Shown here in pieces: positions 30,783-49,972 of a stretch of 64,000 nucleotides of DNA; the stretch's first letter is position 1, and each line of letters opens with the position of its first letter. The DNA is taken from the NCBI GenBank assembly GCA_049700835.1, contig JBNAUL010000002.1:222999-286998 (forward strand), given 5' to 3'. The translations under genes and the position numbers were made by a program. The notes beneath the pieces are model-generated. The model did no database searches, was not told the DNA's origin, and worked only from the letters and a program-made list of their open reading frames with translations. This DNA is from Candidatus Woesearchaeota archaeon. GTDB taxonomy: Archaea; Nanobdellota; Nanobdellia; Woesearchaeales; WAPY01.

Positions 30783-30894
30783 AATCAGATTTTGCATTTT
30801 TCTTTTTATTTATTTTTAATTTGATTTCTTAAATTTTATGAATAATTTTAAATACTTCTAATAATAAAATCATCTAATCAATTTTGCTAATTTT

Positions 30895-30967
30895 GGGCCT
30901 GTAGCATAATCAGGAAGTGCATCCGGCTTCGGACCGGACTATCAGGGTTCAAATCCCTGCAGGCCCG
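30895..30967 (+). tRNA. tRNA-Arg(TCG)
   Basis: GGGCCTGTAGCATAATCAGGAAGTGCATCCGGCTTCGGACCGGACTATCAGGGTTCAAATCCCTGCAGGCCCG cloverleaf; anticodon arm TCCGG-CTTCGGA-CCGGA. Confidence 0.95.
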
Positions 30968-31107
30968 TAAAGGGACTGCAGACCAGGAATGACTAAAAGG
31001 AATGACGCTGCCTGCAGGCCCGTAAAGGGACTGCAGACCAGGAATGACTAAAAGGAATGACGCTGCCTGCAGGCCCGTAAGGAATTGGAGACTAATAATG
31101 AGTGAAA
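30956..31107 (+). repeat. 55-bp tandem repeat containing the last 12 nt of tRNA-Arg(TCG): two exact units plus a degenerate third
   Basis: CCTGCAGGCCCGTAA begins at 30956, 31011 and 31066; the first two 55-bp units are identical. Confidence 0.95.
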
Positions 31108-31223
31108 TTTAAAATAATAAAAAATTAGAAAAATTAATATACCATTTATTTTAGTTTTTTTAAATAATAATATTTTATAGTACAATTAATTTATTACATA
31201 GGTATAGTTTATTTATGATTTAT

Positions 31224-31296
31224 GGCGGTAGTGGCGTAATGGTTAGCGTGGAGGCCTGTGGAGCCTCAGGAGGGGGTTCGATTCCCCCCTACCGCC
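31224..31296 (+). tRNA. tRNA-His(GTG) with encoded G-1
   Basis: GGCGGTAGTGGCGTAATGGTTAGCGTGGAGGCCTGTGGAGCCTCAGGAGGGGGTTCGATTCCCCCCTACCGCC; G-1:C73 pair. Confidence 0.95.
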
Positions 31297-31881
31297 CTAA
31301 TAATTAAAATTGTATCTGCTCTTATTGTTGAAGAATGTTTTTTTGATAACAAGTTCTCCTTCCAATCTTATAGAATATTCGTGCTTAATTCCTATGTTTT
31401 GATCCTTGTCTGAGAAAACAAAATAGAGAATGTTTCTCTTTAAAGAGTATCCAAAACCGCTAACATTGGTTTCAAGCCCATTTTCTTCAAGCGCTTTGTT
31501 TGTTATTCTTGCAATTTCCTTTTCAAGCGTCAAGATTGTTTGCTTCAAAATCTTTGATATTATTACTTCAATATGCTCTGCTGAATTTCTATCATTGATC
31601 AAGCTCTCCAAGTTAAAATGAGGAATCTTGTTTTGAGTTATCATTTCATTGCTCTTTAATGAAATCTCTTCTTTTATTTCTTTTTTTTCATCAAGAAGTT
31701 TTTTATGATATTCAATGAATTTGTTTGGAATTGCCTGCATTCCTTTAACAACAGCATAATACTGAAAAGAATTATTTATTTGAGTTTTGATTATTGGAAC
31801 TCTTGAATTAAAATAAATTTCATTTGGTTTTTTAAAATTATATTCTATGCTCAAACCCTTGTTTTGATTAACTTCTTCCAT
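31297..31881 (-). CDS. Hypothetical protein
   Basis: About 195-aa ORF downstream of purB; stop codon abuts the tRNA-His 3' end. Confidence 0.6.
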   Translation of the reverse strand: MEEVNQNKGLSIEYNFKKPNEIYFNSRVPIIKTQINNSFQYYAVVKGMQAIPNKFIEYHKKLLDEKKEIKEEISLKSNEMITQNKIPHFNLESLINDRNSAEHIEVIISKILKQTILTLEKEIARITNKALEENGLETNVSGFGYSLKRNILYFVFSDKDQNIGIKHEYSIRLEGELVIKKTFFNNKSRYNFNY

Positions 31882-31927
31882 GGAAGCAGTATTATTAAAC
31901 AATTATAAAAATTTTTTGAAATTCAAA

Positions 31928-33292
31928 TCAAAAATCATTTCTTGCAATCTTATCAGCAATTCCATAGTAATCCTTTGGGTCTAATTTTAAAAAATCATCT
32001 TCTATGTTTTGTGGCAGATTGAGTTTTTTTATAATATTCCTAAATTCTTCAATGTTCATTTTCCTGCCTTGAACTTCTTGTCTAAGAATTTCATAAGCAT
32101 TCTCATAACCTAATGTTCTTAGTTTTGTTTGAACTGCTTCTGCTAAAATCTCTGCGTGCTCGTTAAGTTCAGAACTAATTTTTTCTTTGTCAACATCTAT
32201 TTTTTCCAAACCAAAAATTATTTTTTTATAAGCCAAGAGAGAATGCCCGTAAGCAACTCCATAGTTTCTCTTAACTGTTGAATCTGATAAATCCCTTTGA
32301 TATCTTGAAATAACAATTTTGTTGGAAAATAAATCGAACAATGCATTGGAAGTTTGAAGATTTCCTTCAGCATTTTCAAAATCAATTGGGTTTATTTTGT
32401 GAGGCATAACTGAAGAGCCAATCTCATTTTTGTTTTTTAGCATTAAATAATCAATCGAGATGTAATTCCAAATATTTTGTGAAAAATCAATTAGAATGGT
32501 GTTTATTCTAATAATGTTTTGAAACAATTCTGCTTGCCAATCATTAGGTTCTTTTTGAGTTGAGAAAGGATTAAACTTAAAATTAAACTTAATAACAAAT
32601 TCCTTTGCTAATTCAATCCAATTTAAATCAGGAATAGCGTAGTAAAAAGAATTAAAGTTTCCTGTGCTTCCTGAGAACTTAACAAAATATTCTTGATTTT
32701 CAAGCTTGATTTTTTGAGTTTTTAATCTTTCACAATAATTCCTAAATTCTTTGCCAAGGGTTGTTGGAGAAGCAACTTGGCCATGAGTTCTTGAAAGCAT
32801 AACTATGCTTGAATACATTTCTGCAAAATCATTAAGTTTTTCTATGATTAGTTCTAAGTTTTCTGATAAAATTTTATTTCCCTTTCTAAGCATGCTCGCA
32901 ATTGCCAAATTATCAACATCCTCAGAAGTTATTCCAAAATGAATAAAAGCATAAAGTTCATCAGGGTAATCTTTAATCTTTTCTTTTAAATTAATTCTCA
33001 AAGCAAGTTCTATTGCCTTAACATCGTGGTTTGTGGGTTTTATGTTCTTATAACCGTTTGTTTCAATCTGCTTAACAAGATTGTAATCAACATCTATTTC
33101 CTTAATTCTATCAATTAGTTCTTTTTTGCGATCGTCGTTTAAATTCAATGTTTTTATTATTTCTTTTTCCAACAGAAAAATCAGCCATTCCTTCTCATAA
33201 AAAATTCTCTCTTTAACATAATTACTTTCACTAAAAATAGTGTCAAGTTCTTTAACTAATTCATAATACCTGTCATCTAATGGAGAGAGCAT
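31928..33292 (-). CDS. purB: Adenylosuccinate lyase (E. coli-like subtype)
   Basis: LSPLDDRY, TNHDVKA, TSED, RTHGQ.ASPTT.GKE, GSSVMPHKINPIDFENAEGN, QRDLSDSTV.RN. Confidence 0.95.
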   Translation of the reverse strand: MLSPLDDRYYELVKELDTIFSESNYVKERIFYEKEWLIFLLEKEIIKTLNLNDDRKKELIDRIKEIDVDYNLVKQIETNGYKNIKPTNHDVKAIELALRINLKEKIKDYPDELYAFIHFGITSEDVDNLAIASMLRKGNKILSENLELIIEKLNDFAEMYSSIVMLSRTHGQVASPTTLGKEFRNYCERLKTQKIKLENQEYFVKFSGSTGNFNSFYYAIPDLNWIELAKEFVIKFNFKFNPFSTQKEPNDWQAELFQNIIRINTILIDFSQNIWNYISIDYLMLKNKNEIGSSVMPHKINPIDFENAEGNLQTSNALFDLFSNKIVISRYQRDLSDSTVKRNYGVAYGHSLLAYKKIIFGLEKIDVDKEKISSELNEHAEILAEAVQTKLRTLGYENAYEILRQEVQGRKMNIEEFRNIIKKLNLPQNIEDDFLKLDPKDYYGIADKIARNDF

Positions 33293-33325
33293 TTTAAAAC
33301 AAAAAATATTTTATTTATTTTGAAT

Positions 33326-36300
33326 TTATCTAACACTTACTGTTGCTAATGTTGAAGTTGTAGTTCTATTAAAATAGTCTTTTATTGTGAAATAATAATT
33401 AATCTTTGTTTTTTGAGAAACTTCTGATAGGTTAATTGTTACTGAACATGTTTTTGAATTTCCTGAAAGGCATGTTGAATTAAAATTATATGATTTCCAA
33501 TCATCATTTCCTATTTTATAATAAAACATCGCTTCTTTAACATAACTTTCTGAATAACTTACGGTAAAATTTGTTGGAGCTTTATAAACTGTTGTTCCTG
33601 ACTTAGGGGCTGTATAGTAAATGTATGGTTTGCTTGAATCAATTGTAAAACTTATTAATTCTTCACTTGGATTTCCTAAGCTATCATAAGCCCTTATTTT
33701 TAAGTTGTTAAGGCTTTCAACAAAAGTTAAATATCCAATATAAGAATTACAATAACTGCATAAAGTATTCCAACGATAATTGTTCAATGAGTATTCTATT
33801 CTTAATGCTTTTTCACCAACAGTTATGTTTACTGGTAATCTTAAATTATTATAGATTGTATTGTTTTCTGGATTGTTAATTGTTATGCTAGGGCCAGTAG
33901 TGTCCACACTAAAGTACCAAATCGTTTCATTGTAGAATCCTAAACTATCTACCAATTTCAAGTACAACTCGTATCTTCCATCGCTAAGTTCCTCATCAGG
34001 CCAATAATCAAAGTAAAAATTGCTAAAAGAAGAGTTTAAAGTAATATCTTTTCCATTCAATTTTGCAACGCATGCGTTTTTATAAATACTTGTATTATTA
34101 TTTGATGTTTCATAAGCAGCCCATATGTGTGGTTTTTTATTGTTTATAATAGAATTATTCATTGGTCTAAAAGTCTTTATTTTTGGAGAAAAACCTTCAT
34201 CAACTTTACCATCACAATTATCATCAATACCGTTATAAATTTCTGTAGCATTAGGATTGATTGAAGTATTTTCATCATTACAATCACCGCTTGCCAAAGC
34301 CCTATATTTTCCATAAGCACTGCAATAGCATCTTGAATCAGTTATTCCAAAATAATCCTTGTCATTATCATAATAATAATTAATGCAGTTCAAAGCATTC
34401 CTTTCATTAATCTTTCCATTGCAGTTATCATCATAAGTAGTTAAGCAGTCCTCAATCATTCCTGGATTAACAGTAGCATTATCATCATTACAATCATTTC
34501 CAACAGGACACTCTGAAGTTAAAGCATAATAACCATCATTGTCATTGTCTGTGCAGTTATAACCAACAGCAATCTGTTTTCTACAGGTTTCTCCAAACCA
34601 AACAACTCCTTCCCTCAGCATCTGCCAATCAAAATTATAAGTTCCGTTAGTTAAAGGAGCAGTAACTTGAAAACTGAATTTATGCTCTCCTAAAAATCCA
34701 ACAGAATCAGAGTCAGAAAGTTCTATTCTGTTTAAACTCCAATTAGTGTTGTCCTGAGGATTTTGAGAGCCGAGCTTATAGTTTTCTGCTTTTGTCCAAG
34801 TATTAACTCCAAAGTTTTTCATCTTAACATAAGCTGTGTAATTTCTGCCAATTATCATTTCAGAAGTAACATTTATTTTTAAGCATAAGGCATCATTATC
34901 TTTAAGCCAAGGTTCATAATCGATAAAGTCGGTGACATTATTTCCTGAACCATTGTGATTATAGAGTCCTCCTGAGGTTCTATCATCAGAATCATCCTTA
35001 GGGCCTAAAGGACTTCCCCACCAATTGTATTCTGCATTTAAAACATTGGAATAATTATTTTTTAGATTAACCCCTCCATTAGAATTATTTGTTATGTTAT
35101 TATAATTCACAACGATGTTCTTTCCATCAAGTGTCTGATTTGAGAACAATCCGACATAATTATTATAAACATTGTTGAACAAAACACTAACATTATTGGA
35201 GTCTGCCCTGTTTGGATAGGAGTTGAATGCAATTCCTGCTCCTAAAGAATAACCATAAACAGTATTGTTTCTTATAATGGTATTATAGAATTGTCCTCCA
35301 ATTCCAGCACCATAAACACTTGCACTTCCTATAACCTCGTTTTCTTCAATAATGCTGTTCTTTTGATAGCCAGTAATTCCGAATTTAGAATTTTCAATTT
35401 TGTTGTATCTCATTGTTGCCTTTGTTATAACTCCATCTGTTTCTAAATGAGTGTTATTATCATCTCCTGCTGTTATCCCGCTTGTTCCTGCTCCTTTTAC
35501 ATAATTATACTCGACAATTGCATTTTTAGCCCTCCAAAGATTAATGCCATCAACTGTTGAATTTTCAATTATATTATTCCTAATAATAACGTTGTTTGTA
35601 AAATCAGTAACATGTATTGCCTTGTAAGGATTAGAATTCGCTGAAATTTTAAAACCATTAATTACTACCTGTCCAGAACCTGCTCTTATTTGTATTGTTC
35701 CATTTGTATTAGACGAAAGTATTACTGATTCTTGAGCAGTGTTTCTTGTTCTTGCATCAACCCCTGCCTGTGCTCCTCTTAAAGTTAATGGTTTTGTTAT
35801 TGTTAAGTTTTCACTATAATTTCCTACTCTTACATTTATAGTGTTTCCAGCAGTAGAAGCATCTATTGCTGATTGAATCTTCATTCCAGGACCAACATAA
35901 TAAACATCATAATCTGTTAGAGGAACTTGAGTTGGAACTTTGTTAACAACAGCATCTACAGCTCCTAATGAAACTGCTAATGAAGCATTATTCAATGCAG
36001 AAGTTAATGTTGGATAAAAAACAATTACATGAGGTTTTATTGATGGAAACCTTACAATATACTTAAAATCGTTTGAAACATTAAGGTTTGTTATTGGATA
36101 ATCACTTCCTACTGAATAATTTGATGTTTCTATGTAAAAAGGAATTATTTCTGAAAAACTGTTTGTCCCTTTTAATGTAATATTATCACACCCTCCAGCA
36201 TAGTATTGGCCTGAAGTGAATACTGCAAGTCCAGACCAATTATTATTATTTGTGATTATGTTTTCCAAAACAAAATTTTTTGAATCAGTAATTCCAATTC

Positions 36301-36817
36301 CTGTTCCATTGTTATAATAAGCTTGAATGTTTTCAAGTAGCACATCATTGCAGCCATTAAAGTTTATTCCACTCCTTCCAGAATTCTTAACAACAACATC
36401 CTTAATCTGAATGTTAGAAGCTCCTGAGACAAAAATACCATAACCATCTGTATGATTTAAAGGCCCTATCATGGTAAAATTGCTTAGAACAACATTGTTT
36501 GTATTATAAATTTCTATTCCATAGCCAGAACTTATTGAACTTGCATTTATAATAACGCTGTTTTTATTAACACCAGCCAAAGTTATTTTCTTATTAATGT
36601 ATAAAGTGTTGCTTAAATAGTAAATTCCAGAATTCACGATTATTGTATCACCATCAGCTACCTGTGTTAAAGCATATTGTATTGTTTTGCAAGGATTCGA
36701 AACATTAGAACAATCGCCAGAATCTGTTCCTGTTACATTAACATATTTTGTTGTTGCAAAAACATTTGAAGTAAAAAACAATAGAACTAACAAGCATATT
36801 AAGAAATTCTTTTTCAT
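33326..36817 (-). CDS. Large secreted/surface protein: beta-helix repeats, NBR1-like Ig domain, MopE-like Cys/Asp repeats, Ig-like C-terminus
   Basis: Signal peptide; PCKTIQYA and KIQSAID beta-helix caps; NWWG; MKN.G..TW..W.M....WFG; DNDNDGY..DCNDDN..NPG..DDNCNG repeats. Confidence 0.85.
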   Translation of the reverse strand: MKKNFLICLLVLLFFTSNVFATTKYVNVTGTDSGDCSNVSNPCKTIQYALTQVADGDTIIVNSGIYYLSNTLYINKKITLAGVNKNSVIINASSISSGYGIEIYNTNNVVLSNFTMIGPLNHTDGYGIFVSGASNIQIKDVVVKNSGRSGINFNGCNDVLLENIQAYYNNGTGIGITDSKNFVLENIITNNNNWSGLAVFTSGQYYAGGCDNITLKGTNSFSEIIPFYIETSNYSVGSDYPITNLNVSNDFKYIVRFPSIKPHVIVFYPTLTSALNNASLAVSLGAVDAVVNKVPTQVPLTDYDVYYVGPGMKIQSAIDASTAGNTINVRVGNYSENLTITKPLTLRGAQAGVDARTRNTAQESVILSSNTNGTIQIRAGSGQVVINGFKISANSNPYKAIHVTDFTNNVIIRNNIIENSTVDGINLWRAKNAIVEYNYVKGAGTSGITAGDDNNTHLETDGVITKATMRYNKIENSKFGITGYQKNSIIEENEVIGSASVYGAGIGGQFYNTIIRNNTVYGYSLGAGIAFNSYPNRADSNNVSVLFNNVYNNYVGLFSNQTLDGKNIVVNYNNITNNSNGGVNLKNNYSNVLNAEYNWWGSPLGPKDDSDDRTSGGLYNHNGSGNNVTDFIDYEPWLKDNDALCLKINVTSEMIIGRNYTAYVKMKNFGVNTWTKAENYKLGSQNPQDNTNWSLNRIELSDSDSVGFLGEHKFSFQVTAPLTNGTYNFDWQMLREGVVWFGETCRKQIAVGYNCTDNDNDGYYALTSECPVGNDCNDDNATVNPGMIEDCLTTYDDNCNGKINERNALNCINYYYDNDKDYFGITDSRCYCSAYGKYRALASGDCNDENTSINPNATEIYNGIDDNCDGKVDEGFSPKIKTFRPMNNSIINNKKPHIWAAYETSNNNTSIYKNACVAKLNGKDITLNSSFSNFYFDYWPDEELSDGRYELYLKLVDSLGFYNETIWYFSVDTTGPSITINNPENNTIYNNLRLPVNITVGEKALRIEYSLNNYRWNTLCSYCNSYIGYLTFVESLNNLKIRAYDSLGNPSEELISFTIDSSKPYIYYTAPKSGTTVYKAPTNFTVSYSESYVKEAMFYYKIGNDDWKSYNFNSTCLSGNSKTCSVTINLSEVSQKTKINYYFTIKDYFNRTTTSTLATVSVR

Positions 36818-36979
36818 CAAAACACCCCTGCTTTTTTCTAAATGCGCTCCTAAACTCTTAAAATATTTAAACTTTTCTGTATTTCTTTATTACCAAGTGG
36901 TTATAATTTAGTCAGAATTTCAAATTTTTGAGAAAAATATTTAAACAGAAAAGATTGTTTTTCTTTAGGGGTGGTTTAA

Positions 36980-38086
36980 ATGCCAGAAAAGATTCTTGAA
37001 GAATTTGTGAATAAAGAATTTTCTGAATACAGTTCTAAGGAAAGAAATGAAATATTGCGTATTTTGAAAGAGACAATGCCTTTGAACCTTCCAATGGCTT
37101 ATCTTTCTAGCGAAAACAAAGAGGATTATTTGAAAAGCACCTATGATAATCTAAAACAAAAAAAAGAAGATATAGAATCAGGAGAAAAAAGAAACTTCCT
37201 GGAAAAGGGTTTTGATGTAAGGAATAATGCGAGAATACTTGGGTATTTGTTTTTGATGCATAGAGATTATGAAAAAGCAACAGACTCTTTTAATTTATCT
37301 TCTGATTTTAAAGTTGAAGAGGGCGCGCAAAAATATTATATTCTGCTTTCAGAGAAAAACAGAGAAAGAATAAGCAATGTTTTAAAAGAGTTTTATTCAA
37401 GAGCATTGAGCCAAGGTTACGAGCCAAGGAGCGCTGATGAGATTTATAAAAATAATGGAGCAAAAAAAATTCCTCACGAAGGCAAGGATAAGAAAGAAAA
37501 TAACAAAGAAGGAATTAAGTGCGAAACCCTGATAGGTACAGGTTTTTTGATTGTTGCTATTGCTTCGGGAACAATAGGCTACAAAATAATGGAAAAGAAA
37601 TTTGAAAATAGATTAAAAGAAGAAGGCAGAGATTATGAACAGCAAATTCAGGAATTAAAGAACAATCTTGATTCTCAAACTTTAAGGAATTCAGAGCTTG
37701 AAAAGCAGATTTTGGAGCTTTTAGAATTAAAAGATAAACCTGTTTATGTAGTTACAATGTTGGGCAAGGACGAAACAATAACTCACAAGATCGCAGAATA
37801 TCTTGACTTGTCCCTTGGAAAGTATTATGATGAAATGTCAGCAAGCAGCAGGATAAAGCTAATAAATGATTTTACAAGAATACTGTACAACATTGAAGAG
37901 AACAGCAGAGTTGGTTTAACAATCGAAAGTACAAGAAACCTTCCAGAAAACTTCTTTTTTTACATTCCTGTGTCAAAGGTTGAAACTAAAAAAATTCAAA
38001 ATTTGGAAACATGGGTTTTAACAGGAAAGTATAAAGATTTAAATGGAATTATTAAAGAGTATAAGTTCTCAGTTTTAGATTATTAA
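36980..38086 (+). CDS. Hypothetical membrane-anchored protein with coiled coil
   Basis: GGGGTGG SD; central TM (LIGTGFLIVAIASGTIGY) followed by a heptad-rich segment. Confidence 0.75.
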   Translation: MPEKILEEFVNKEFSEYSSKERNEILRILKETMPLNLPMAYLSSENKEDYLKSTYDNLKQKKEDIESGEKRNFLEKGFDVRNNARILGYLFLMHRDYEKATDSFNLSSDFKVEEGAQKYYILLSEKNRERISNVLKEFYSRALSQGYEPRSADEIYKNNGAKKIPHEGKDKKENNKEGIKCETLIGTGFLIVAIASGTIGYKIMEKKFENRLKEEGRDYEQQIQELKNNLDSQTLRNSELEKQILELLELKDKPVYVVTMLGKDETITHKIAEYLDLSLGKYYDEMSASSRIKLINDFTRILYNIEENSRVGLTIESTRNLPENFFFYIPVSKVETKKIQNLETWVLTGKYKDLNGIIKEYKFSVLDY

Positions 38087-38145
38087 TATATAATATAAAA
38101 TTAATATATAAAACAGATATAATAAAAAATTTTCATAGAAACTCT

Positions 38146-38552
38146 ATGGCATCTGATTTAGAAAAATTAATAGAAAACATGGAAAAACAGGAAAAAAAAG
38201 CAGAGGATTTTAAAGCGCAAAACAACGATGAGATGTTCTTTTCAAGCACTTACATGCTGCTCGATTTGTATTCACAGTTTTCAAAAAATTATAACCCTGA
38301 AAAAGATGTTCTTAACAACAAGCATAAAGAAATATTGTCAAAGATAGAGAATTCAATAAAAAATTTCATTCAGGAATATTCTTCTTACCAAGGAAATTGG
38401 GTTTTGATTGTTGATGGAAAAATAGAATTGTACGATAAAAACCTTGCAAACATTCTTGATAAAGAATCTGAATATGTGAAAATGAATATGTGAAAAAGGG
38501 TAAGAGAATAAGCGAAGTTTATATCCCAGAGCTCGGGGAACAAAAACTTTAG
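38146..38552 (+). pseudogene. Probable DUF5678-like protein truncated by a 14-bp tandem duplication
   Basis: YQGNWVLIVDGKI motif; TGAATATGTGAAAA duplicated at 38469-38496 creates TGA ending at 38493; removing one copy extends the frame to TAG ending at 38552. Confidence 0.55.
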
Positions 38553-38620
38553 ATAAAAATTCTGAAAAAAATAAAAACTTTAAATTAAATTATTTAATTT
38601 TATTTTAATTTAATTTTATT

Positions 38621-39781
38621 TCAATTGCTTTTTCCAAGCGCTTCTCTTCTCAAAATTTCTGCCTTATCAGTTTTCTCCCAAGTGAAATCTTCAATCTCAA
38701 CTCCGAAGTGCCCTAACATCGCTGTTTTTTTGTAAATCGGTCTTCTAAGTTTTAGATACTCAATTATTTGTTTTGGCTTCAAAGGAAAGATTTTCATGCA
38801 AACCTCTCTTATTTTTTCTTCTGGAATTATTGAAGTGTTATAACAATCTATGTCAAAACTCGTTGGTTCTGCAACTCCGATTGCATAGCTTATTCTTACC
38901 AAGCATTTCTTTGCAAGTCCTGATTTTACAACATTCTTTGCAATGTGCCTTGCCATATAAGCAGCGCTCCTGTCAACCTTTGTAGGATCCTTTCCTGAGA
39001 AAGCACCTCCTCCAGCAGGAACTATCGGCCCGTAGTTGTCAATAACAACCTTTCTTCCAGTAAGCCCTGTGTCTGCCTGAGGTCCTCCTATCACGAATCT
39101 TCCTGTTCCGTTGATTATTATTTTTGTTTCTCTGGTTAAATATTTGCCGCAAACTGGCTTTATTACCTTTTTTAGAATGTCCCTCCTCAATTTTTTTAAA
39201 TCAACATTTGGGCTGTGCTGTGCTGCTATTATTACATTTGTAACATGTTTTGGCTCGTCATTTTCATACAAAACGCTGACCTGAGATTTTCCATCAGGCC
39301 TCAGGTAAGGAATAATCTTTTTCTTTCTTACTTCTTCTAATCTCCTTGTAAGCTTTTTTGCCAAAGAAGTAGGCAAAGGCAGCAACTCTTTTGTTTCATC
39401 GCAGGCATATCCAATCATTATTCCTTGATCCCCTGCTCCTTCTTCGTGCTTTTCTGTTTCATCAACCCCTTTTGCTATGTCAGGACTTTGCGGTTGAATT
39501 GAAACAAGAACTCCAACTGTTTTATAGTCCAAACCCAAATCCTCGTTGTCATAACCTATCTGCTTTACTGTTTGCCTTATCACATCTGAAATTTCAACAT
39601 AGGTTCTCGTTGTTATTTCCCCACCAACTATTATGAGGCCTCTTGTAGTGAATGTTTCGCAAGCAACCCTTGCATTCTGGTCTTTTTCTATTATCGCATC
39701 CAATATTGCATCAGAAAGTATGTCGCACATCTTGTCAGGATGACCCTGACTAACTGATTCAGCAGTCAATATCTTGTTCAT
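38621..39781 (-). CDS. metK: S-adenosylmethionine synthetase, bacterial/eukaryotic type
   Basis: ESVSQGHPDK, GAGDQG, RPDGKSQV, GLTGRK, GGGAFSGKDPTKVDRSAAY. Confidence 0.97.
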   Translation of the reverse strand: MNKILTAESVSQGHPDKMCDILSDAILDAIIEKDQNARVACETFTTRGLIIVGGEITTRTYVEISDVIRQTVKQIGYDNEDLGLDYKTVGVLVSIQPQSPDIAKGVDETEKHEEGAGDQGIMIGYACDETKELLPLPTSLAKKLTRRLEEVRKKKIIPYLRPDGKSQVSVLYENDEPKHVTNVIIAAQHSPNVDLKKLRRDILKKVIKPVCGKYLTRETKIIINGTGRFVIGGPQADTGLTGRKVVIDNYGPIVPAGGGAFSGKDPTKVDRSAAYMARHIAKNVVKSGLAKKCLVRISYAIGVAEPTSFDIDCYNTSIIPEEKIREVCMKIFPLKPKQIIEYLKLRRPIYKKTAMLGHFGVEIEDFTWEKTDKAEILRREALGKSN

Positions 39782-39931
39782 GGTATCACCAAATATTGTG
39801 TTTCAACGCTTGTTTAAAAATCTTATTGAAAGCAATATTCCAATAGGAATATTTTCTTAAAAATTTATTTATGAGATCAAAAAATAAAAATGCGATTGCT
39901 CAAAACTAAGGAAAATGTTTGGTTGAAGCAA

Positions 39932-40519: not shown

Positions 40520-40704
40520 TTTAAAACCTTGCAGAGCTTTTGCGGACTATTTTACATTTTGCTTTTTTACATTTTGCTTTTTATTTGCACTCCTTTTTTT
40601 TCATCAGTAAACAATCGCATATAAGTAAGTTTGCATAAATAATCTTGCTTTATAAAATTTTGCGTTTTGCTGGCAGCATTGGTCTTATGATGCTTCTCTT
40701 AAAA

Positions 40705-41442: not shown

Positions 41443-41488
41443 AAATTATTTTCTAATAAACAAATATTTAAAAATTTTGTGTTATTAC

Positions 41489-41907
41489 ATGACTCTAAGA
41501 ATGAAAAAAGATAAAAAAAAAGCAGGTTCGTTGTTCAGGAGCATTTTTCAAGAACTCATCACTTTGATTTTCGGCTTGAACTTGACAATGTCTTGAAGAG
41601 CTGGGCTGTTCCAAAAGGTCTTCCTGAAAAAACAGGAATAATGAGGTTGGCTGTTCAGACAGAGGACCATGATTTGGATTATATAAATTTTGAAGGGGAA
41701 ATTCCAGAAGGTTTTTACGGCGCTGGAAAGGTGAAGATTTTTGATTCAGGTAGTTTTGAGCTCGTTGAGAGAACTCAAGATAAAATAGTTTTCGTGCTGA
41801 ATGGAAAAAAATTAAGAGGAAAATACACGCTTTTGAGAGCAAGTTATAAAAATTCGGACAATAAAAATTGGCTAGTGATAAAGAACAAAGTCAGCAGCAA
41901 ACAATAA
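41489..41907 (+). CDS. Stand-alone LigD 3'-phosphoesterase domain; start joined only via a frameshift in an A9 run
   Basis: RFVVQEH..HFDFRLE..LKSWAVPKG, RLAVQTEDH..Y..FEG.IP.G.YGAG; ATGs at 41489/41501 are out of frame across A9 (41513-41521). Confidence 0.8.
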
Positions 41908-41968
41908 AAAGTTCAAACAAAAATCATTTTTACAATTTTTCATAAAGTTTTATAAAATTTTCAGCAAG

Positions 41969-42523
41969 GTGGTTTTGGTGGTTTCAGCGGTTTTTAAGAA
42001 TAGCAGGAGATTAAAGAACAAGAATTTCTTAAGAAATTCTATGCTATTCAGCATTATGTTCAGCATTCTTTTTATTCTGCTTTTTTTAGAATCTGCACAT
42101 TCAGAGAACTCAGATATCTGCATAAGAAGAGAAGTTATTTTCAATGAAAAAAACAAAAATGCAAACACTGTTTTAGTCAAACTCAATGCAAGGACAAACA
42201 AGACAATAGAGTTTTATGAGGTGATTCCTAAAGAATGCGCAGTCGGAGAGCATGGAACTATGAGCGCTTCAAAGAACACGCTTAAAGCAACGATAAGCAA
42301 TGATTCTGAAATGAAATACGAACTAATGTGCAACTACGGAAACCACACAATACAGGGGTATTATTTTGTAGAAGGTAATTACAAGCAGAAATTCTACATT
42401 GAGAATACAACATTCTTTATTCAAAAAGTCATTCCAAAAGAACTTCCGATATGGCTTTGGTTTGTTCTTCTGATGCTACTCATAATATTTTTCATAGCAG
42501 TGCTTAAGAGAGAAGAGTTATAA
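41969..42523 (+). CDS. Secreted protein with C-terminal membrane anchor
   Basis: N-terminal hydrophobic signal-like segment, beta-rich body, C-terminal TM with basic tail; start uncertain. Confidence 0.65.
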   Translation: MVLVVSAVFKNSRRLKNKNFLRNSMLFSIMFSILFILLFLESAHSENSDICIRREVIFNEKNKNANTVLVKLNARTNKTIEFYEVIPKECAVGEHGTMSASKNTLKATISNDSEMKYELMCNYGNHTIQGYYFVEGNYKQKFYIENTTFFIQKVIPKELPIWLWFVLLMLLIIFFIAVLKREEL

Positions 42524-42534
42524 AAAACAAAAAA

Positions 42535-43203
42535 ATGAAGATCCAAGAGATAAAAAACCTTCTAAAAGAGGAATTGTATAACATCCTGGAAAGCGAGGGG
42601 ATAGAGGAATTAAGACCTGCTCAAGAAAAAGCAATAAGGGCAGGGCTTCTTAATGGAAAAAACCTTCTTATCTGCACTCCGACTGCTTCTGGGAAAACTT
42701 TAATAGCAGAGATAGCAATGGTAAATACGATACTCTCAAATGGAGGCAAGGCTGTTTACATTTCCCCGTTAAAAGCCCTTGCAAATGAAAAGTACAATGA
42801 TTTTAGAAGAAAATACTCAAACTTGATGCGGATTGCATTATCCATTGGAGATTTTGATTCTGCTGACGCGTATTTGATGGACTACGATTTGATAATCATA
42901 ACTTCTGAAAAACTTGACTCTTTGATAAGGCACAATGCTCCGTGGATTCCAATGATAAGGGTTGTAATAATTGATGAAGTACACCTGCTAAATGATTTTG
43001 AAAGAGGCCCTACCCTTGAAATCTTGATAACTCTTTTGAAACAAGTTTTGAAGAAAGTTCAGATAATTGCGCTCTCAGCAACAATAGGCAATCCAAAAGT
43101 ATTGGCAGAGTGGTTGAATGCTGATTTGATTATAGACGATTGGAGACCTGTAAAATTGAAAAAAGGAGTTTTACACAATTGGGAAATAAAATTTTTTGAA
43201 TAG
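42535..43203 (+). CDS. Hel308/Ski2-like helicase, N-terminal RecA domain only
   Basis: LRPAQ Q motif, PTASGKT, PLKALA, TSEKLDS, DEVH, SAT, WRPVKL, then stop. Confidence 0.88.
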   Translation: MKIQEIKNLLKEELYNILESEGIEELRPAQEKAIRAGLLNGKNLLICTPTASGKTLIAEIAMVNTILSNGGKAVYISPLKALANEKYNDFRRKYSNLMRIALSIGDFDSADAYLMDYDLIIITSEKLDSLIRHNAPWIPMIRVVIIDEVHLLNDFERGPTLEILITLLKQVLKKVQIIALSATIGNPKVLAEWLNADLIIDDWRPVKLKKGVLHNWEIKFFE

Positions 43204-43211
43204 TTCTATTT

Positions 43212-43943
43212 TCACGGCAACTTATCAGGGGGAATCTTCTTTACAATCTTTTCAACAATTTCTCCTGCATCATACTTTTCTTCATGCAAAACGCTGTTGA
43301 AGAACCTACAAACGTTGAAAACATCTCTTGAAAGGTAATTCAAAGAATCTTGGTTTCTCATAGGAGTTGAATGGCTCAAATCAATAAAATACGGCTTTCC
43401 TTCATAGTTTAGTATGTTGAACTCAGAGAGATCTCCATGAACAAAACCATGAACCGCAAACTTCTCTATGTTTTTGAAAACTTGCTTTGCAAAGTTTTCT
43501 ACATTCTCAGGCAGAGAGTCCTTAATACTTGGAGCAGGGTTTTCCTTCCCTATGAATTCCATTATCAAAATGTTCTTTTGGAATGCGATTGGCTTTGGAG
43601 CGTTTATTCTTGCTCTTTGCGCGTTTATTAGATTTCTGAACTCCCTCTGACACCAAGCAAATATAACCTTCCTGCGCTTGTTAGCCAAGCCCTTAAATCT
43701 TGGGTCTCCTCTTATGTAAAAAAACATTCTCTTGAAATCAGCTGTCTGAAGCCTGTAAATTTTCACTATAACCTTCTCGTTGCTTTTTGTAAGCGCAAAA
43801 AAGATATTTGACTCTTTGCCAACAGCAATGTTTCCTTTTAGCTCCTCAAAAATTCCCTTGTTTATCAAAATTTTTAAATTGTTGATTGTAAAATTGTCAA
43901 AAACATCCTGCCAAACCTCAAATTTTTCTTTCCATTTAGGCAT
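43212..43943 (-). CDS. rio1: RIO1 serine kinase
   Basis: GKES, VKIY, YIRGDPRF, HGDLSEFNIL, IDLS. Confidence 0.93.
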   Translation of the reverse strand: MPKWKEKFEVWQDVFDNFTINNLKILINKGIFEELKGNIAVGKESNIFFALTKSNEKVIVKIYRLQTADFKRMFFYIRGDPRFKGLANKRRKVIFAWCQREFRNLINAQRARINAPKPIAFQKNILIMEFIGKENPAPSIKDSLPENVENFAKQVFKNIEKFAVHGFVHGDLSEFNILNYEGKPYFIDLSHSTPMRNQDSLNYLSRDVFNVCRFFNSVLHEEKYDAGEIVEKIVKKIPPDKLP

Positions 43944-44174
43944 AACAATGAATGTTTTTTGAAAGTTTAAAAATTTTTTTAAAGAAAAAAATTAAAAAAA
44001 ATTTAAAATAGAAAAGTTTAAAAACAACACTAACTTATTTTTCAAAACGATAATCATTTAAAAGTAGAAATTAAATTCAAGATATCAAATTAATATTAAA
44101 TAATTAAATAATCTAAATAATCAATATTGGATTTAATCAGTTGAATACTGACAAACAAACGAGCAGGTGATAGA

Positions 44175-44495
44175 ATGCAAAAGAGCATGAGGGAAATTGT
44201 CAATGAACTTTCTTATGAGGATCTTTTAAAATTCAAGAAAGATCTTGAAGAGAATTCTTTTCAGATAAAAAAACTCGTCGAACAGAGGATTAGGCAGGAG
44301 ATTGAAAAAAATTCTCATGTTTGCGCCAACTGCGGAAGAAAGATGAATCCCTACGAGGATGATGAACTTTGCTTAATCTTTGGGCCTCCTGATTTCAAAA
44401 GAAGGGCTTATTTCTGTGGGATTGACTGCCTTGAGTATTTTCTTGCAGAACTGAAGAAGATTGAAGTCAAAAAACTAAAAATTCCTAAAATTTAA
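44175..44495 (+). CDS. Small putative zinc-binding protein
   Basis: CANC ... FCGIDC (TRASH-like); AGGTGA SD. Confidence 0.75.
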   Translation: MQKSMREIVNELSYEDLLKFKKDLEENSFQIKKLVEQRIRQEIEKNSHVCANCGRKMNPYEDDELCLIFGPPDFKRRAYFCGIDCLEYFLAELKKIEVKKLKIPKI

Positions 44496-44521
44496 AAAGC
44501 AGAGCAAAATACCAGTAATTT

Positions 44522-45193
44522 ATGGAGAAATACTTAAATGAAATAAGAGTGCCCAAGGAAAGAGTAGCAGTTGTCATTGGAAAGAAGGGTGAGACAAAAG
44601 AAAAGATTGAGAAAGAACTCAACTGCAAACTAAGAATTGATTCTGAAACAGGGCTTGTAACAATAAATTCAAAGGATGCAATAATGCTCTACAAGGCGTC
44701 AGAGATAATAAAGGCAATAGCCCGTGGTTTCAGTCCTGAGAATGCTTTTCTCCTTCTGAAAACAGATTATGTTCTTGAAATAATTTCTTTAAAAGAATAC
44801 ATAAAATCAAGCAATAGGATGAAGATAGTGCTTGGAAGGATAATAGGAAGCAATGGAAAGTCAAAGAGGACTATTGAAGAACTAACAAACACTGTAATAT
44901 CTGTCTATGGAAAAACTGTTTCAATAATAGGGGAGACATTGAATGTCATCAATGCAAGAAGAGCTGTAACAATGCTTATAAACGGGGCGCAGCACACAAG
45001 GGTTTTTAGTTTTCTAAGCAAAATTGCTGAAGAGGAAAAGAAGATAAGCATGCTTGGTTATGAGGAAAGGGAGGATGTTGTTTATAAAAAGATTGACGAG
45101 CAATTGAATAAAAACAAGAAAGAAAATAAAAAAGAGAGAAAGACAACTGAAAACAATAAAAATAAAAACAAGAAATTAGAGACAAAAGAGTAA
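44522..45193 (+). CDS. KH-domain rRNA-processing protein (Dim2/Pno1 family)
   Basis: RVAVVIGKKG, AIARGFSPE.A, GRIIGSNG, GKTVSIIG, GAQH. Confidence 0.92.
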   Translation: MEKYLNEIRVPKERVAVVIGKKGETKEKIEKELNCKLRIDSETGLVTINSKDAIMLYKASEIIKAIARGFSPENAFLLLKTDYVLEIISLKEYIKSSNRMKIVLGRIIGSNGKSKRTIEELTNTVISVYGKTVSIIGETLNVINARRAVTMLINGAQHTRVFSFLSKIAEEEKKISMLGYEEREDVVYKKIDEQLNKNKKENKKERKTTENNKNKNKKLETKE

Positions 45194-45357
45194 AACCTAA
45201 AGAGTAAAGCAGAAAGACAAAAACTGGCTGAATTTTTAAAAAATATGAGATATTTAGAGCAGGAGAAAAAGAAGAAAAAAGCGCAAAAAACAAGCAATGA
45301 ACAGCAATGAATAAAATTAGAAAAATATAAAAATAACCAAAAGAGCAAGCAAGAAAA

Positions 45358-47058
45358 ATGGCTGAAGAAAAAGAGGTAAATAAGGAAAATAATTCTAATG
45401 AAAATAATGGAATTGCATTTGAACTTGCAAAGAAACAAAGGGAAATCTCAATAGCAGAGTTCTTTGAGAAGAACAGGCACTTGCTCGGCTTTGACAACAA
45501 GAGAAAGGCGTTGCTAACTGCTGTCAAGGAAGCAGTTGACAACAGTTTAGATGCCTGCGAAGAAGCAAGAATACTGCCTGAGATAAAGGTGGAGATAACA
45601 GAACTTTCAGAGGAAAGATTCAAGGTAGTTGTTGAAGACAATGGGCCAGGAATCGTAAAGGATCAAATTCCAAAAATCTTTGCCAAGTTGTTGTACGGAA
45701 GCAAGTTTCACACTCTAAAACAATCTCGCGGCCAACAAGGAATTGGAATTTCAGCAGCAGTTCTTTACGCGCAATTGACAACAGGAAGGCCAGCAAGAAT
45801 AACCTCAAAGATAAAGGAAGAGGATTCCGCGCATTTTTATCAGCTCCATATAAACACTCAGCAGAACAAGCCAGAGGTTGTTGAGGAGAAAAAGATAGAT
45901 TGGGAAAAGATCAGCGGAACAAGGGTCGAGATAGACATAGAAGCTTCTTATCAAAAGGGAGACCAAAGCGTTGACGAATACCTAAAACAAACAGCAATAA
46001 TAAATCCATATGCTACCATAATATACATAAATCCTAAATCAGAACAGCAGATATTCTCAAGAACAATAAACGAACTTCCAAAGAAAGCGCAGGAGATAAA
46101 ACCGCATCCTTATGGAATCGAAATTGGAAGATTGCTCAGAATGCTGCACGAAACAGAATCAAGAACCCTGCAAAGCTTTCTGACAACAGAGTTCTCAAGA
46201 GTTGGAAGTTCTACTGCAAAAGAAATCTGCGAAAAGGCAGCTCTATTACCACAAACAAAGCCAAAAACAATAATAAGGGAAGAGGCTGAAAAACTAATAC
46301 GTGCAATAAAGGAAACAAAGATAATAGCTCCATCAACAGATTGTTTATCACCGATAGGAGCGAATGAACTCGAAGAGGGTTTGAGAAAAGAATTCGCAGC
46401 AGAGTTTTACACATCAACGCAGAGGCCTGCATCAGTTTATAGGGGCAATCCTTTCATAATAGAATGTGCCCTTGCATATAGTTCAGCGCTGCCTCAAGAC
46501 CAACCGATAATTTTGATGAGGTTTGCAAACAAGGTTCCATTGCTCTATCAAAAGAGTGCCTGCGCAATAACTAGGACGGTTTCTCTTATAAATTGGAGGC
46601 AATACGGGCTGCAGCAATCAAAGGACAGTTTGCCAATAGGACCTGTTGTCTTGGCAGTTCATTTAGCATCGGTTTGGGCTCCTTTTACAAGCGAGGCAAA
46701 GGAAGCGATTGCGCATTATCCTGAAATAATGAAGGAGATAAAATTGGCAGTTCAGGAGTGTGCCAGAGACCTTTATGTTTATCTTAGGAAGAAACAGAGG
46801 TTTCACGAGCAGATAAAGAAAAAGGGCTATATTGAAAAATACATACCGCACATTTCAGAATCTTTGAAAGAGATACTTAATTTGAGAGAGGACGAGATTC
46901 CTGAAATAAAAAAGGCATTGGAAGAAATACTTGAAAAAACAAGAAGGATTGAGGAGCTTGAAACTCCTGAGGAAGTTGATGAAAAAGAAAAAATAGGAAT
47001 AAGAGGAGAAGTTGAGGAGGAAGTTGAAAACATCGAGGAAAATGAAAGAGGAAAATAA
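45358..47058 (+). CDS. top6B: DNA topoisomerase VI subunit B
   Basis: [40 protein letters not shown]. Confidence 0.97.
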
Positions 47059-48163
47059 AACAAAGGAAAAGATTGAATTTGACAAAAACTTGCTTGACAG
47101 GATAAAGGAACTCGCTTACAATCTGCTCCAAGAAATAAAAAGCAAGAAAAGCCCTTCATTAAAAACCCCTTTGAGAAATTTGGCGAATGTTCATTACAAC
47201 AAGGAAAAGGGATACTTTGAGATAGGCAGCAAAATAAAGAAGAGAACGCTGACAGTCAACACTTCAAAAACATTTGCCCAAACATTGAGAATGCTTAGTT
47301 TATCAAAAACTCTAATAGAAACAGATGACATTGCAACAAAGAGAGAAGCTTACTATGTATCAAAGAATTGGGGGGATGCAAGATTTTTAGAACAGCAGGA
47401 ATCAGACGCAATAATGGACGACATTGAAGCTATGTTCTTAGTCAACAGGGAAAAACTCGGGTTTATTCCTGAAGAAAAGGGAGGAGATGTTGCTGGAAAA
47501 CTCATGGTAATTGACAAGGATCCTGAAACAGGCAAGGAGATAAAGATTGACTGCACCAAAATGGGAACAGGCGCTTATTCAATTCCAAGCAGCGTTGAAC
47601 ACTTAAAGTTTGAGACAAACGCTGATTTCATACTTGCAATAGAAACAGCAGGCATGTATCAGAGATTGGTAAAGCACACTTATTGGAAAAAATCAAATGC
47701 AATACTAATCTCAATGGGAGGGGTTCCAACAAGGGCTTGCAGAAGATTCATAAGGAGATTATCAGACGAGATGAAACTCCCTGTCTATGTTTTTACAGAC
47801 GGAGATCCATATGGTTATCTCAACATCTACAGGACATTGAAGGTTGGTTCTGGAAATGCAGCACACATCAACAAGTATTTCTGCGTACCTCAAGCAAAAT
47901 TCATTGGAATAACTCCGCAGGACATAATTGATTACAAACTCCCAACACATCCTCTAAAAGATGTTGATGTCAAGAGAGTAAAAGACGGTTTAAAGAACGA
48001 TCCTTTTGTAAAGCAGCATCCTGATTGGCAAAAGGCATTGAAACAATTGGTTGAGATGAGGAAAAGGGCTGAACAGCAAGCACTAGCGCAGCACGGCCTT
48101 AATTTTGTAATCACAAACTATCTGCCTGAAAAACTTTCAAACCCAAAAACATGGTTGCCTTAA
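47042..48163 (+). CDS. top6A: DNA topoisomerase VI subunit A
   Basis: TKREAYY catalytic Tyr, IETAG, DGDPYG TOPRIM, AEQQA. Confidence 0.97.
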
Positions 48164-48786
48164 ATTCTGAAAAAACAAAAAAAATAAAGATAGTTGTTTT
48201 TGATTTAGGAGGAGTTCTTTTTGAGTATGCAACTCTAAAGGCAGCAAAAGTTTTAAGCGAGAAATACAATTACAAAAAGAAAATAATTTTGAATTTGCTT
48301 CAATCAAAAAAGAGCAGGGCTCTAAGAGAAGGAAAGATAAGTGATAAAGATTTTTGGAATTATGCAAAAAAGATTGTCCCAAAGAATTATTACACAAAAA
48401 TAATAAAAAAAGTTTGGGATGGTTGTTCTGAAATTAATAGAAAAGTGTTTAAAATCGTAAAAGAGCTTAGCAAGAATAAGAAAGTAAAACTCATGATTTT
48501 TTCAGGCAATGTAAGAACAAGAATAAAAGCTCTTGACAAAAAATATAATTTCAGAAGGTATTTTTACAAAGAAGTTTATTCTTTCAACCACAAAATAAAT
48601 AAGCCGAAAACAAAATTTGTAAGAATAATGATTGAGCAAGCAGGAGTTAATCCTGAAGAAATCTTATACATAGAAGACAATCCTGTTTATGCAGAACCAG
48701 CAAGAAAATTAGGTGTAAATGTTGTCATTTTTAAGAATGCTAAACAATTAAAAAAGGAATTAAAAAACTTCGGGCTTTGGATTTGA
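48151..48786 (+). CDS. HAD-superfamily phosphatase
   Basis: FDLGGVL, FSG, KP, YIED. Confidence 0.85.
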   Translation: MVALNSEKTKKIKIVVFDLGGVLFEYATLKAAKVLSEKYNYKKKIILNLLQSKKSRALREGKISDKDFWNYAKKIVPKNYYTKIIKKVWDGCSEINRKVFKIVKELSKNKKVKLMIFSGNVRTRIKALDKKYNFRRYFYKEVYSFNHKINKPKTKFVRIMIEQAGVNPEEILYIEDNPVYAEPARKLGVNVVIFKNAKQLKKELKNFGLWI

Positions 48787-48842
48787 CTTAAACCTTTATT
48801 CTGCACTACTTTTATTTTTTAACAAGTTTTCTCTTACGAATT

Positions 48843-49410
48843 TTATAACATTAGAGAATATGCTGTGTTATAAATATTGTTATTTGATTGCTCTTCAAGT
48901 TTTAATTCCAAGAGGTGTAAGCTTGATTCTATGTTTTCAAGATAGCAAGCAAGTTGTCCCCATGTTCTTTGCTTTTTTTGAAATCTCATTCAAAAGCATT
49001 TCTTTTAAGTCCTCTTTTTTGCGATTGCAAAAATTCTTTTTTTTAGGATTTAGTTCTTCTAACAATCCATATTCTACAATCAAGTAAAATAGAACACTTT
49101 CAGGTTTTATGCTTCCTAAATTTTTATATTCGCAACAGGAGTTCTTCAAAACATTAAAGCAGGAATAAAAACCTCCTAAGTATGAGAGCGTGCTTTCAAA
49201 CAAGTTTTCTATTTTGCTTTCCACTTGAGCAATTCTTTCAGAATAATCTCTGTTTTTAGGAGAGCTTTTTATTCTTTCAATATCAGAATAAAAACCTACA
49301 ATCTATTCTGCTATAGGAGTATAGACACCGCTGTTTAGTTTTTCATTAATATCATCTATTCTTTGCTCTAAATCATTGAGCATATTCCTAAACGAATTCT
49401 TTGAGTTCAT
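48843..49410 (-). pseudogene. Degraded gene of unknown function
   Basis: ATG 49410 is in frame with track ORF 48937-49224 but interrupted by TAG at 49303-49305; protein-like sequence continues in another frame (GQLACYLENIESSLHLLELK...) past the TGA at 48937. Confidence 0.5.
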
Positions 49411-49533
49411 AGCCACAAAAAAATCATAAAAGCAGATGTGTTTTATAAGCATTTTTGTAAAGGAAAATTTATATTTGAATAGTAAGTTTTAAAAACAAAA
49501 ATAGTAAACCAATAGAATAAAACAATTTTTTAA

Positions 49534-49607
49534 GGACCTGTAGCCTAGTCTGGAAGGGCAACAGCCTTCTAAGCTGTGGGTCGAGGGTTCAAATCCCTCC
49601 AGGTCCG
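49534..49607 (+). tRNA. tRNA-Arg(TCT)
   Basis: GGACCTGTAGCCTAGTCTGGAAGGGCAACAGCCTTCTAAGCTGTGGGTCGAGGGTTCAAATCCCTCCAGGTCCG cloverleaf; anticodon arm ACAGC-CTTCTAA-GCTGT. Confidence 0.95.
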
Positions 49608-49854
49608 TTAGGAACTGGAGACCAGGAATGACTGAAAGGAATGACGCTNNNNNNNNNNNNNNNNNNNNNNNNNNNNNNNNNNNNNNNNNNNNNNNNNNNN
49701 NNNNNNNNNNNNNNNNNNNNNNNNNNNNNNNNNNNNNNNNNNNNNNNNCCTCCAGGTCCGTTAGGAACTGGAGACCAGGAATGACTGAAAGGAATGACGC
49801 TGCCTCCAGGTCCGTAACAAGGTGAAGGAACTGAAAACTAAGAATGACTAAAAG
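49596..49854 (+). repeat. 54-bp tandem repeat containing the last 12 nt of tRNA-Arg(TCT); spans an N gap so copy number is unknown
   Basis: CCTCCAGGTCCG at 49596, 49749 and 49803; same core as the 30956 array; degenerate tail at 49827-49854. Confidence 0.9.
49649..49748. other. Assembly gap (100 N) inside the tRNA-Arg(TCT) repeat array
   Basis: Run of N. Confidence 1.
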
Positions 49855-49972
49855 ATTTGGTTTACTTTAAGTTCTAAATTATCTATTTTTTTATCTACTA
49901 CAAAATAACAATTGTGATAAGTATTTTTTACAATAAAAAAGGTTTTATATTTTCTAATCATTTTTTAAATTT

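Follow-up and report, generated by a model that had tools for sequence, protein, structure and literature searches.

The window analysed here is a 64,000-nt stretch of contig JBNAUL010000002.1 (GenBank assembly GCA_049700835.1, positions 222,999 to 286,998, forward strand) from a Candidatus Woesearchaeota archaeon, and our subject is a set of short hairpin units that lie in tandem just downstream of both tRNA-Arg genes of the window. The genome (G000, 1.07 Mb) is archaeal and carries intron-bearing tRNAs, Alba, S17e, topoisomerase VI and an archaeal RNase P RNA. An earlier note on this DNA had described two 51-nt units, at 30972-31022 and 49764-49814, with five differences between them, and both the units and the differences (columns 3, 8, 24, 43 and 48) were found as described. 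In the following, T is the host segment that is repeated in the units, T' its inverted copy, P2 the inner helix of the core, and R1 and R2 are two covariance models introduced below. The features of the two loci are as follows.

30895..30967, plus strand: tRNA-Arg(TCG), called by ARAGORN and by the Rfam tRNA model (65.2 bits); the host segment T, which the units repeat, is its 12-nt 3' end (30956-30967).
30972..31022, plus strand: unit 1 of locus 1, with T' at 30972-30981, the core with P2 at 30982-31011 and the direct copy of T at 31011-31022 (R2, 69.7 bits, E 8.7e-17).
31027..31077, plus strand: unit 2 of locus 1, identical to unit 1 (Tandem Repeats Finder (TRF); R2).
31081..31114 (about), plus strand: decayed partial unit of locus 1, lacking the 3' arm (read from the sequence, not scored by the models).
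31149..31161, plus strand: first oligo-T runs past tRNA-Arg(TCG), T4 and then T7, 3' of the array; the first T4 lies at +181 from the ARAGORN gene end.
49534..49607, plus strand: tRNA-Arg(TCT), called by ARAGORN and Rfam; the host segment T is its 12-nt 3' end (49596-49607).
49611..49648, plus strand: first unit of array 2, truncated by a scaffold gap (read from the sequence; partial R2 match at 49621-49650).
49649..49748, no strand: 100-N scaffold gap within array 2, which hides how many copies this array has; every gap of the assembly is 100 N.
49764..49814, plus strand: full unit of array 2; ahead of it stand a 3-nt spacer and, before that, the end of another unit (49749-49760) (R2, 69.8 bits).
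49827..49860 (about), plus strand: decayed partial unit of array 2, after a 12-nt spacer (R1 match at 49827-49876, E 0.0054).
49886..49892, plus strand: first oligo-T run past tRNA-Arg(TCT), T7, 3' of the array, at +279.

Each of the two units of locus 1 is preceded by a 4-nt spacer, and TRF reports a tandem repeat of period 55 with 2.3 copies and 100% match. The 5' arm of the decayed unit at 31081-31114 is closer to the Arg-TCT type than to the Arg-TCG type of its own locus. The 12-nt spacer of array 2 is found again in a congener (G001, locus L016), where it stands at the same position ahead of a full unit. In the arrays the new units adjoin the tRNA and the decayed units are distal. The core pattern occurs four times in the window compared with none in 100 shuffles, and across the whole 1.07-Mb genome it is confined to these two loci. 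Only 2 of the 40 tRNA genes (ARAGORN, introns allowed) carry the unit; Arg-GCG and Arg-CCT are without it, and the absence from the Lys, Pro, Leu and His tRNAs that the earlier note had reported extends to all 38 other tRNA genes. Outside the window, at G000:C2:309877-309996, ARAGORN calls an intron-bearing 'tRNA-Stop(tta)'; because its ends resemble those of tRNA-Gln(CTG), its intron has probably been mis-parsed, and we do not take it for a suppressor tRNA.

If the arrays were no more than a local tandem duplication, or an artefact of the assembly, at the two tRNA-Arg genes, this would agree with the identity of the tandem copies and with the scaffold gap in array 2. We consider this explanation scarcely credible, and the misassembly that the earlier note had allowed for is contradicted, because the core is present with different arms in 22 other genomes of the order sample, because the independently assembled G001 has units at the syntenic locus, and because contigs of two other public DNA runs cover the unit region, one of them with a loop variant like the short unit of G001. 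That variant, in a contig of run X2, is an Arg-TCT unit with 8 nt fewer in the tip (window 49782-49798) and C>G at 49798, and it is the short variant of G001. Contigs of three DNA runs contain no join that spans the gap of array 2. In run X1 the summed contig depth is 13-19 over 49782-49798 against about 5 on the flanks, a depth that does not equal copy number. The repeats break assemblies, as seen from the gaps in the window and in another genome of the order (G097).

In both units nt 1-10 pair with nt 41-50 around a common A4/G47 mismatch and leave G51 unpaired, and the 3' arm is the last 12 nt of the host tRNA at both loci, just as the earlier note had claimed. RNAfold gives -17.8 and -16.4 kcal/mol for the two unit types (z -2.9 and -2.4). 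The host-matched covariation that had been pointed out is real; by itself it is no proof of a function related to tRNA. Over the 3-4-nt spacer, the 3' end of the tRNA itself is as good a potential partner for the 5' arm as the 3' arm of the unit is, and since the 5' arm can pair with either, the covariation does not single out the 51-nt hairpin. The units contain no T-loop; their inner part is an internal loop followed by helix P2 with variable tips. The Rfam tRNA and mascRNA models match 30895-30967 only and never the units, and the Rfam comparison that had been proposed as a check returned no family that matches them. A single unpaired discriminator-like 3' base is present in Arg- and Lys-hosted units, whereas Leu-hosted units have a 3-nt tail and units at 16S, coding-sequence and gene-start sites have no such base. 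Behind a tRNA, T is the 3' strand of the T-stem plus acceptor helix, and hence the hairpin resembles a tRNA minihelix and tracks its host. Most likely, then, the tRNA likeness is a by-product of a stem copied from neighbouring sequence and not a designed mimic. The proposal of minihelix-like small RNAs freed by tRNA-processing nucleases is not supported as the nature of the family, in which the T-loop is absent, Leu tails are 3 nt long, orientation flips and congeners differ; such an RNA may nevertheless be what the two arrays of the window yield.

The search for the core in G000 and related genomes, which the earlier note had recommended, led to further genomes, but an exact-type pattern was too strict for it and covariance models were needed. 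With up to three mismatches the core pattern was found in 0 of 60 relatives, a threshold which would miss even the G001 unit, as this differs at five positions. Model R1, built from the four units of G000 and G001, had matches in 9 genomes among 151 of the order; R2, for which 16 units were used in the rebuilding, matched 23 of the 151 at E <= 0.01, and 4 of 151 genomes of a class-wide sample at E <= 0.001 (three further genomes; all of these counts include G000). One unpublished genome, G136, counts among the 23 of 151, and no other result rests on it. R2 matches number 1-6 per genome, with the maximum of six in G097. These matches incline us, with only somewhat better than even confidence, to place the units in a family of small (about 40-55 nt) non-coding insertion elements that extends across Woesearchaeota-type DPANN archaea. 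The exact 21-nt tip motif was also sought in public collections and was found at four loci in genome_contigs and one in metagenome_contigs, none of them next to a tRNA; three of these loci are bacterial and look like chance. At another (L006, minus strand, ~1560-1380 at the end of a contig of a Pacearchaeota metagenome-assembled genome) the exact tip of the Arg-TCT unit tops a 10-bp AT-rich hairpin and a second, similar motif is present; this stretch is unannotated and GC-richer, has no tRNA nearby and gives no Rfam match at E <= 1. It is possibly an undescribed structured RNA that shares a protein-binding tip.

About 35 sites were read, leaving out the G136 locus and four R2 matches that came back with no locus. 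Nearly all sites show one succession, with the host segment T first, followed by a spacer, the inverted copy T', the core and a direct copy of T. T begins with CCTC, CCTG or CTTC almost always, the spacer ranges from 2 to about 60 nt, T' is the inverted copy of the first 5-14 nt of T, and the direct copy of T is 4-55 nt long. The basal stem P1 is built from the sequence of the insertion site; its arms agree with the flank there and are different at each site. In the conserved core, an internal loop with ACCAG on its 5' side and GCUGC on its 3' side surrounds helix P2, which covaries, is 5-8 bp long and has a variable tip. The hosts are distributed as follows.

tRNA 3' ends, unit on the same strand: 17 sites and one probable site.
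3' end of 16S rRNA, in the spacer ahead of tRNA-Ala: 1 site.
Last 34 nt of a 470-codon open reading frame, stop codon included: 1 site.
Gene starts, unit on the opposite strand, T being the reverse complement of the ribosome-binding site (RBS): 11 sites.
Host unclear: 4 sites.

The tRNA hosts are Arg (TCT, TCG and CCT), three Leu-type genes, Lys CTT (twice), Thr CGT, Gly CCC, Gln CTG and one Arg-like gene with an intron, which is called by neither ARAGORN nor Rfam; in tRNA hosts T always sets in immediately past the T-loop. At the 11 gene-start sites, 10-58 nt separate the unit from the start codon, and at two of them T is also the reverse complement of the start codon or the first codons. Pfam matches above the curated cut-off back 8 of the 11 genes concerned (DUF5320 twice, ribosomal P1 twice, Alba, a short-chain dehydrogenase (SDR), a YhcG nuclease and a nucleotidyltransferase). 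The suggestion of a non-autonomous element aimed at tRNA-Arg 3' ends was thus right in its direction, namely an element, and too narrow in its limitation to tRNA-Arg, given that the core also lies behind tRNA-Leu, Lys, Thr, Gly and Gln, behind 16S rRNA and a coding sequence, and antisense at 11 gene starts. T' fits the native left flank better than the right copy at five loci (L038, L041, L057, L058 and L065), with L042 as the exception.

At L056 (G133, ~1440-1620) the unit lies within a diverged ~70-nt duplication that covers the RBS, start codon and first 17 codons of the short-chain dehydrogenase gene; the duplication yields a pseudo-start upstream, and the frame that this opens ends in an overlap with the real start codon. 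At L066 (G097, 1351-1595) the nucleotidyltransferase gene is preceded by an array of four or more tandem units that contains a 100-N gap, and the same genome has a unit behind 16S. Upstream of 1501 at L040 (G042), tandem units with a core other than that of R2, each ending in the same host segment, and an N gap lie between tRNA-Leu(CAA) and an R2-type unit, which means that mixed arrays of different hairpin families exist.

Comparisons between relatives show that units come and go. At the Arg-TCT locus syntenic with that of the window, G001 carries 43-nt and 51-nt variant units, and its Arg-TCG locus has a decayed unit only. One core variant is common to both G000 loci, with a difference at 1 of 30 nt, while the 51-nt unit of G001 differs from both at 5-6 of 30; the tRNA genes of the two genomes are 99-100% identical. 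The units therefore change faster than the tRNAs, and the two G000 loci have exchanged sequence. The relatives in the same family (G003-G005) have other inserts or none behind Arg-TCT, and G004 has an R2 unit behind tRNA-Lys. Within one genus, G022 has a unit in the 5' untranslated region (UTR) of its DUF5320 gene, a site that is empty in G149, whereas G149 has a unit before its P1 gene, where G022 is empty. The DUF5320 unit sits downstream of a promoter-like stretch common to both genomes. The cores of these two units differ by one base and their arms are wholly local; in G149, T' matches 8 nt of the native leader and the direct copy is only 5 nt. One Leu-type site of G081 bears the T' of another Leu gene and is mismatched to its own host, which indicates that copies also travel as whole units between similar tRNA genes. 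A different insert family occurs behind tRNA-Ile, Arg-TCT and Ser in G003-G005 (L017, L018 and L019); it has a conserved 10-bp hairpin, a short and likewise conserved T-loop-like tract and a copy of the last 7-15 nt of the tRNA, is sometimes tandem, and lacks an inverted target copy.

What we observe is a conserved hairpin core with target-derived arms, a duplication of variable length, units that congeners have gained or lost, and tandem arrays at which assemblies break. Our best reading, which we favour by a little over an even chance, is a small mobile hairpin element that copies its target and has been tandemly amplified in the window. Such an element could do without its own enzyme and spread at the DNA level, by template switching associated with breaks or replication. 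The left flank would be copied back on itself (foldback) to give T'; the core would then be copied from another copy of the element via GGAG/CCTC microhomology at the hairpin base, and synthesis would resume on the target and thereby duplicate T. Arrays would expand and contract by slippage or unequal exchange between T repeats. The extra copy of T could engage T' and perhaps keep it off the tRNA 3' end or the RBS, which would make the insertion tolerable. As a precedent, inverted duplications of 5-34 bp made by foldback are reported at DNA breaks in yeast, as are insertions templated by distant loci (bioRxiv 10.1101/2024.03.07.583931).

Two rival explanations supply an enzyme. In the first, the hairpin is a repeat that an HUH (Y1) transposase mobilizes in trans in the form of single-stranded DNA, like repetitive extragenic palindromes (REP) and REPINs by RAYTs or like small IS200/IS605 derivatives, and in favour of this the hairpin is strand-asymmetric, its insertion is constant in side and orientation relative to the CCTC-like motif, and the copies are few and scattered. 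We nonetheless hold it to be distinctly unlikely, because REP/REPIN and IS200/IS605 elements do not duplicate their target and leave no inverted copy of it, because the duplication here varies from 4 to 55 nt, and because no match to the Y1 transposase (PF01797) was found in G000, which is 98.7% complete (the control matched in 6 of 14 genomes; the other carrier genomes were not searched). In the second, the units are scars or mini-derivatives of elements that a tyrosine recombinase integrates at tRNA genes, the repeated tRNA 3' end being attL/attR and the arrays tandem integrations. The direct repeat of the tRNA 3' end that flanks the insert and the order of new units beside the tRNA and decayed ones distal would fit; an insert of only about 40 nt does not, an inverted target copy is no feature of att sites, and the core is also found at RBSs with as little as 4-5 nt repeated. 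Moreover, Phage_integrase (PF00589) has no match in G000, compared with control matches in 14 of 14 genomes (serine recombinases were not searched for), so that no Xer-type recombinase was found in this genome, and we regard this origin as very unlikely. A reverse transcriptase was likewise without a match in G000.

Several observations weigh against a mobile target-copying element. Its mechanism of mobility is wholly inferred; neither an intermediate nor an enzyme was seen. In the window T' is inexact, and the A4/G47 mismatch is common to both loci, to G001 and, in other families, to units with Lys and Arg hosts. This mismatch is not what an exact foldback copy would give, and it suggests either inheritance plus selection for pairing or selection that keeps the mismatch. 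The core is old, is conserved across the class and yet present in only a handful of copies per genome, which is unusual for a selfish repeat, and host gene families recur (DUF5320 and P1, each twice). The covariation of P2 belongs here as well. In the 16-unit alignment as a whole 86.6% of cells pair, compared with 64.6 +/- 2.0 after shuffling (0 of 500 shuffles reach the observed values; slid controls stay at or below 47%), and 11 of 14 pairs show double changes, counts that are biased toward structure as the alignments come from model matches. P2 itself covaries, with double changes in three of its five pairs: pair 16-37 is G-C, C-G, U-A or G.A, and another is C-G, U-A, A-U or G.U. What stays constant is the internal loop, together with two A of P2 and, at the base of P1, one A-U and one G-C pair. 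Finally, the non-Watson-Crick cells lean to one strand (G.A/A.G 23 versus C.U 2; G.U 15 versus A.C 7), and at gene-start sites G.U outnumbers A.C by 7 to 1, as expected for a single-stranded functional form; the strand test by G.U versus A.C is suggestive only.

These points feed a live rival to which we give a clear minority chance, that of a functional structured RNA, or a functional single-stranded DNA form. The hairpin would then be a co-transcribed processing, termination or stability element or a minihelix-like small RNA, and in 5' UTRs the set of copy, anti-copy and original would be a translational switch, with mobility explaining arrival only. The conservation of the core across the order and into the class, the covariation of P2 with tandem G.A pairs on one strand, the persistence of the A4/G47 mismatch in a T' that is otherwise host-matched, and the recurrent P1 and DUF5320 hosts all argue for it, as does the position of the arrays before the first oligo-T. 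Behind the two Arg genes the first T4 lies at +181 and +279, whereas 31 of the 38 other tRNAs have theirs within 50 nt, and since the arrays lie before it they are probably part of the primary transcript; from their placement, they are probably transcribed as the tRNA 3' trailer and removed at the tRNase Z cut. In the predicted folds of three 5' UTRs, moreover, the decoy copy of T pairs with the anti-RBS segment. On the other hand, the modelled strand is sense behind tRNA and rRNA but antisense to the mRNA at gene starts, so that one function cannot fit both contexts; presence differs among congeners and family members; the missing T-loop and the 3-nt tail of Leu-hosted units do not suit a minihelix; and the ensemble predicted for pre-tRNA-Arg plus array is heterogeneous, with a frequency of 0.0006 for the minimum-energy structure. 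Known RNA motifs gave no better account of the inner part. A K-turn or K-loop that binds L7Ae was rejected, as the G.A/A.G positions are Watson-Crick in 8 of 16 members and the non-bulged strand has five extra bases, and C/D box, H/ACA and bulge-helix-bulge readings were rejected because boxes, a pocket and 3-nt bulges around a 4-bp helix were not seen and an Rfam match is absent.

A bolder combination, which we think unlikely, is a mobile riboregulator that writes its own specificity, composed of a decoy copy, a sensor hairpin with a conserved loop, an anti-copy and the original, and spread by host repair synthesis with no transposase. In this doubtful version tRNA 3' ends, the 16S 3' end and the RBSs of highly expressed genes would come under one trans-acting factor that binds the conserved loop.

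For the target-copying element, the first consequence is a general one. Covariation with a host tRNA does not prove an RNA function related to tRNA where the arms come largely from the making of the DNA, and covariation explained in this way is a warning against reading any host-matched covariation as function. A hairpin with a target-copied stem can land on tRNA ends, the 16S end and the RBS without destroying them, and an insertion at a gene start creates an anti-RBS segment beside the RBS together with a decoy, which is raw material for translational control. If it is true that host template switching alone spreads the element, it would be minimal selfish DNA in genomes that are nearly without classical mobile elements.

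A short hairpin with a target-copied stem is not among the described classes of prokaryotic repeats, and no published description of the element was found in searches of full texts, which did not cover subscription journals. Among known systems, the RtT repeats of the E. coli tyrT operon (RF00391) are tandem repeats of about 178 nt past a tRNA gene, each of which holds a copy of the tRNA 3' end, and their function is poorly understood. The present units are likewise tandem, directly downstream of a tRNA gene and provided with a copy of its 3' end, but they measure 51-55 nt, contain also an inverted copy of the tRNA end and occupy non-tRNA sites too; RF00391 has no match in the window at its gathering score and none at E <= 10 in 30850-31220. 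Integrative elements leave partial duplications of tRNA genes (attL/attR) while the tRNA gene stays intact. As in these duplications, a direct repeat of the 3' part of the target was observed here to bracket an insert; the insert differs in being gene-less and ~40 nt long, in its inverted target copy, in targets that include the RBS, the 16S end and the end of a coding sequence, and in the lack of a PF00589 match in G000. The mascRNA/MEN-beta type (RF01684) shares an acceptor-like helix which stops one base short of an unpaired 3' base and adjoins a genuine RNA 3' end, whereas our units are without a T-loop and RF01684 matches only the true tRNA.

Repetitive hairpin-forming elements are also described in sponge mitochondria (PMC2800124). 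These elements, REP and bacterial interspersed mosaic elements (BIMEs), and MITEs (miniature transposable elements with inverted repeats) resemble the present family in being short, non-coding, hairpin-forming, scattered over intergenic DNA, gained and lost between relatives and sometimes tandem, but they bring their own arms, while here the outer stem is target-derived and there are 1-6 copies per genome. The features that define MITEs, element-owned terminal inverted repeats and a target duplication of fixed length, do not apply, because the inverted repeat here is formed by an element-side copy against the target and the duplication ranges from 4 to 55 nt. The nearest likeness in mechanism is to the yeast foldback and templated insertions cited above, in which short inverted copies arise at a break via microhomology together with insertions from distant templates; these are sporadic products of repair in a eukaryote, whereas here one conserved core would serve as the recurrent template. 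The present analysis adds the common core, the non-tRNA hosts, the anatomy of inverted and direct copies, and the pairs of filled and empty sites.

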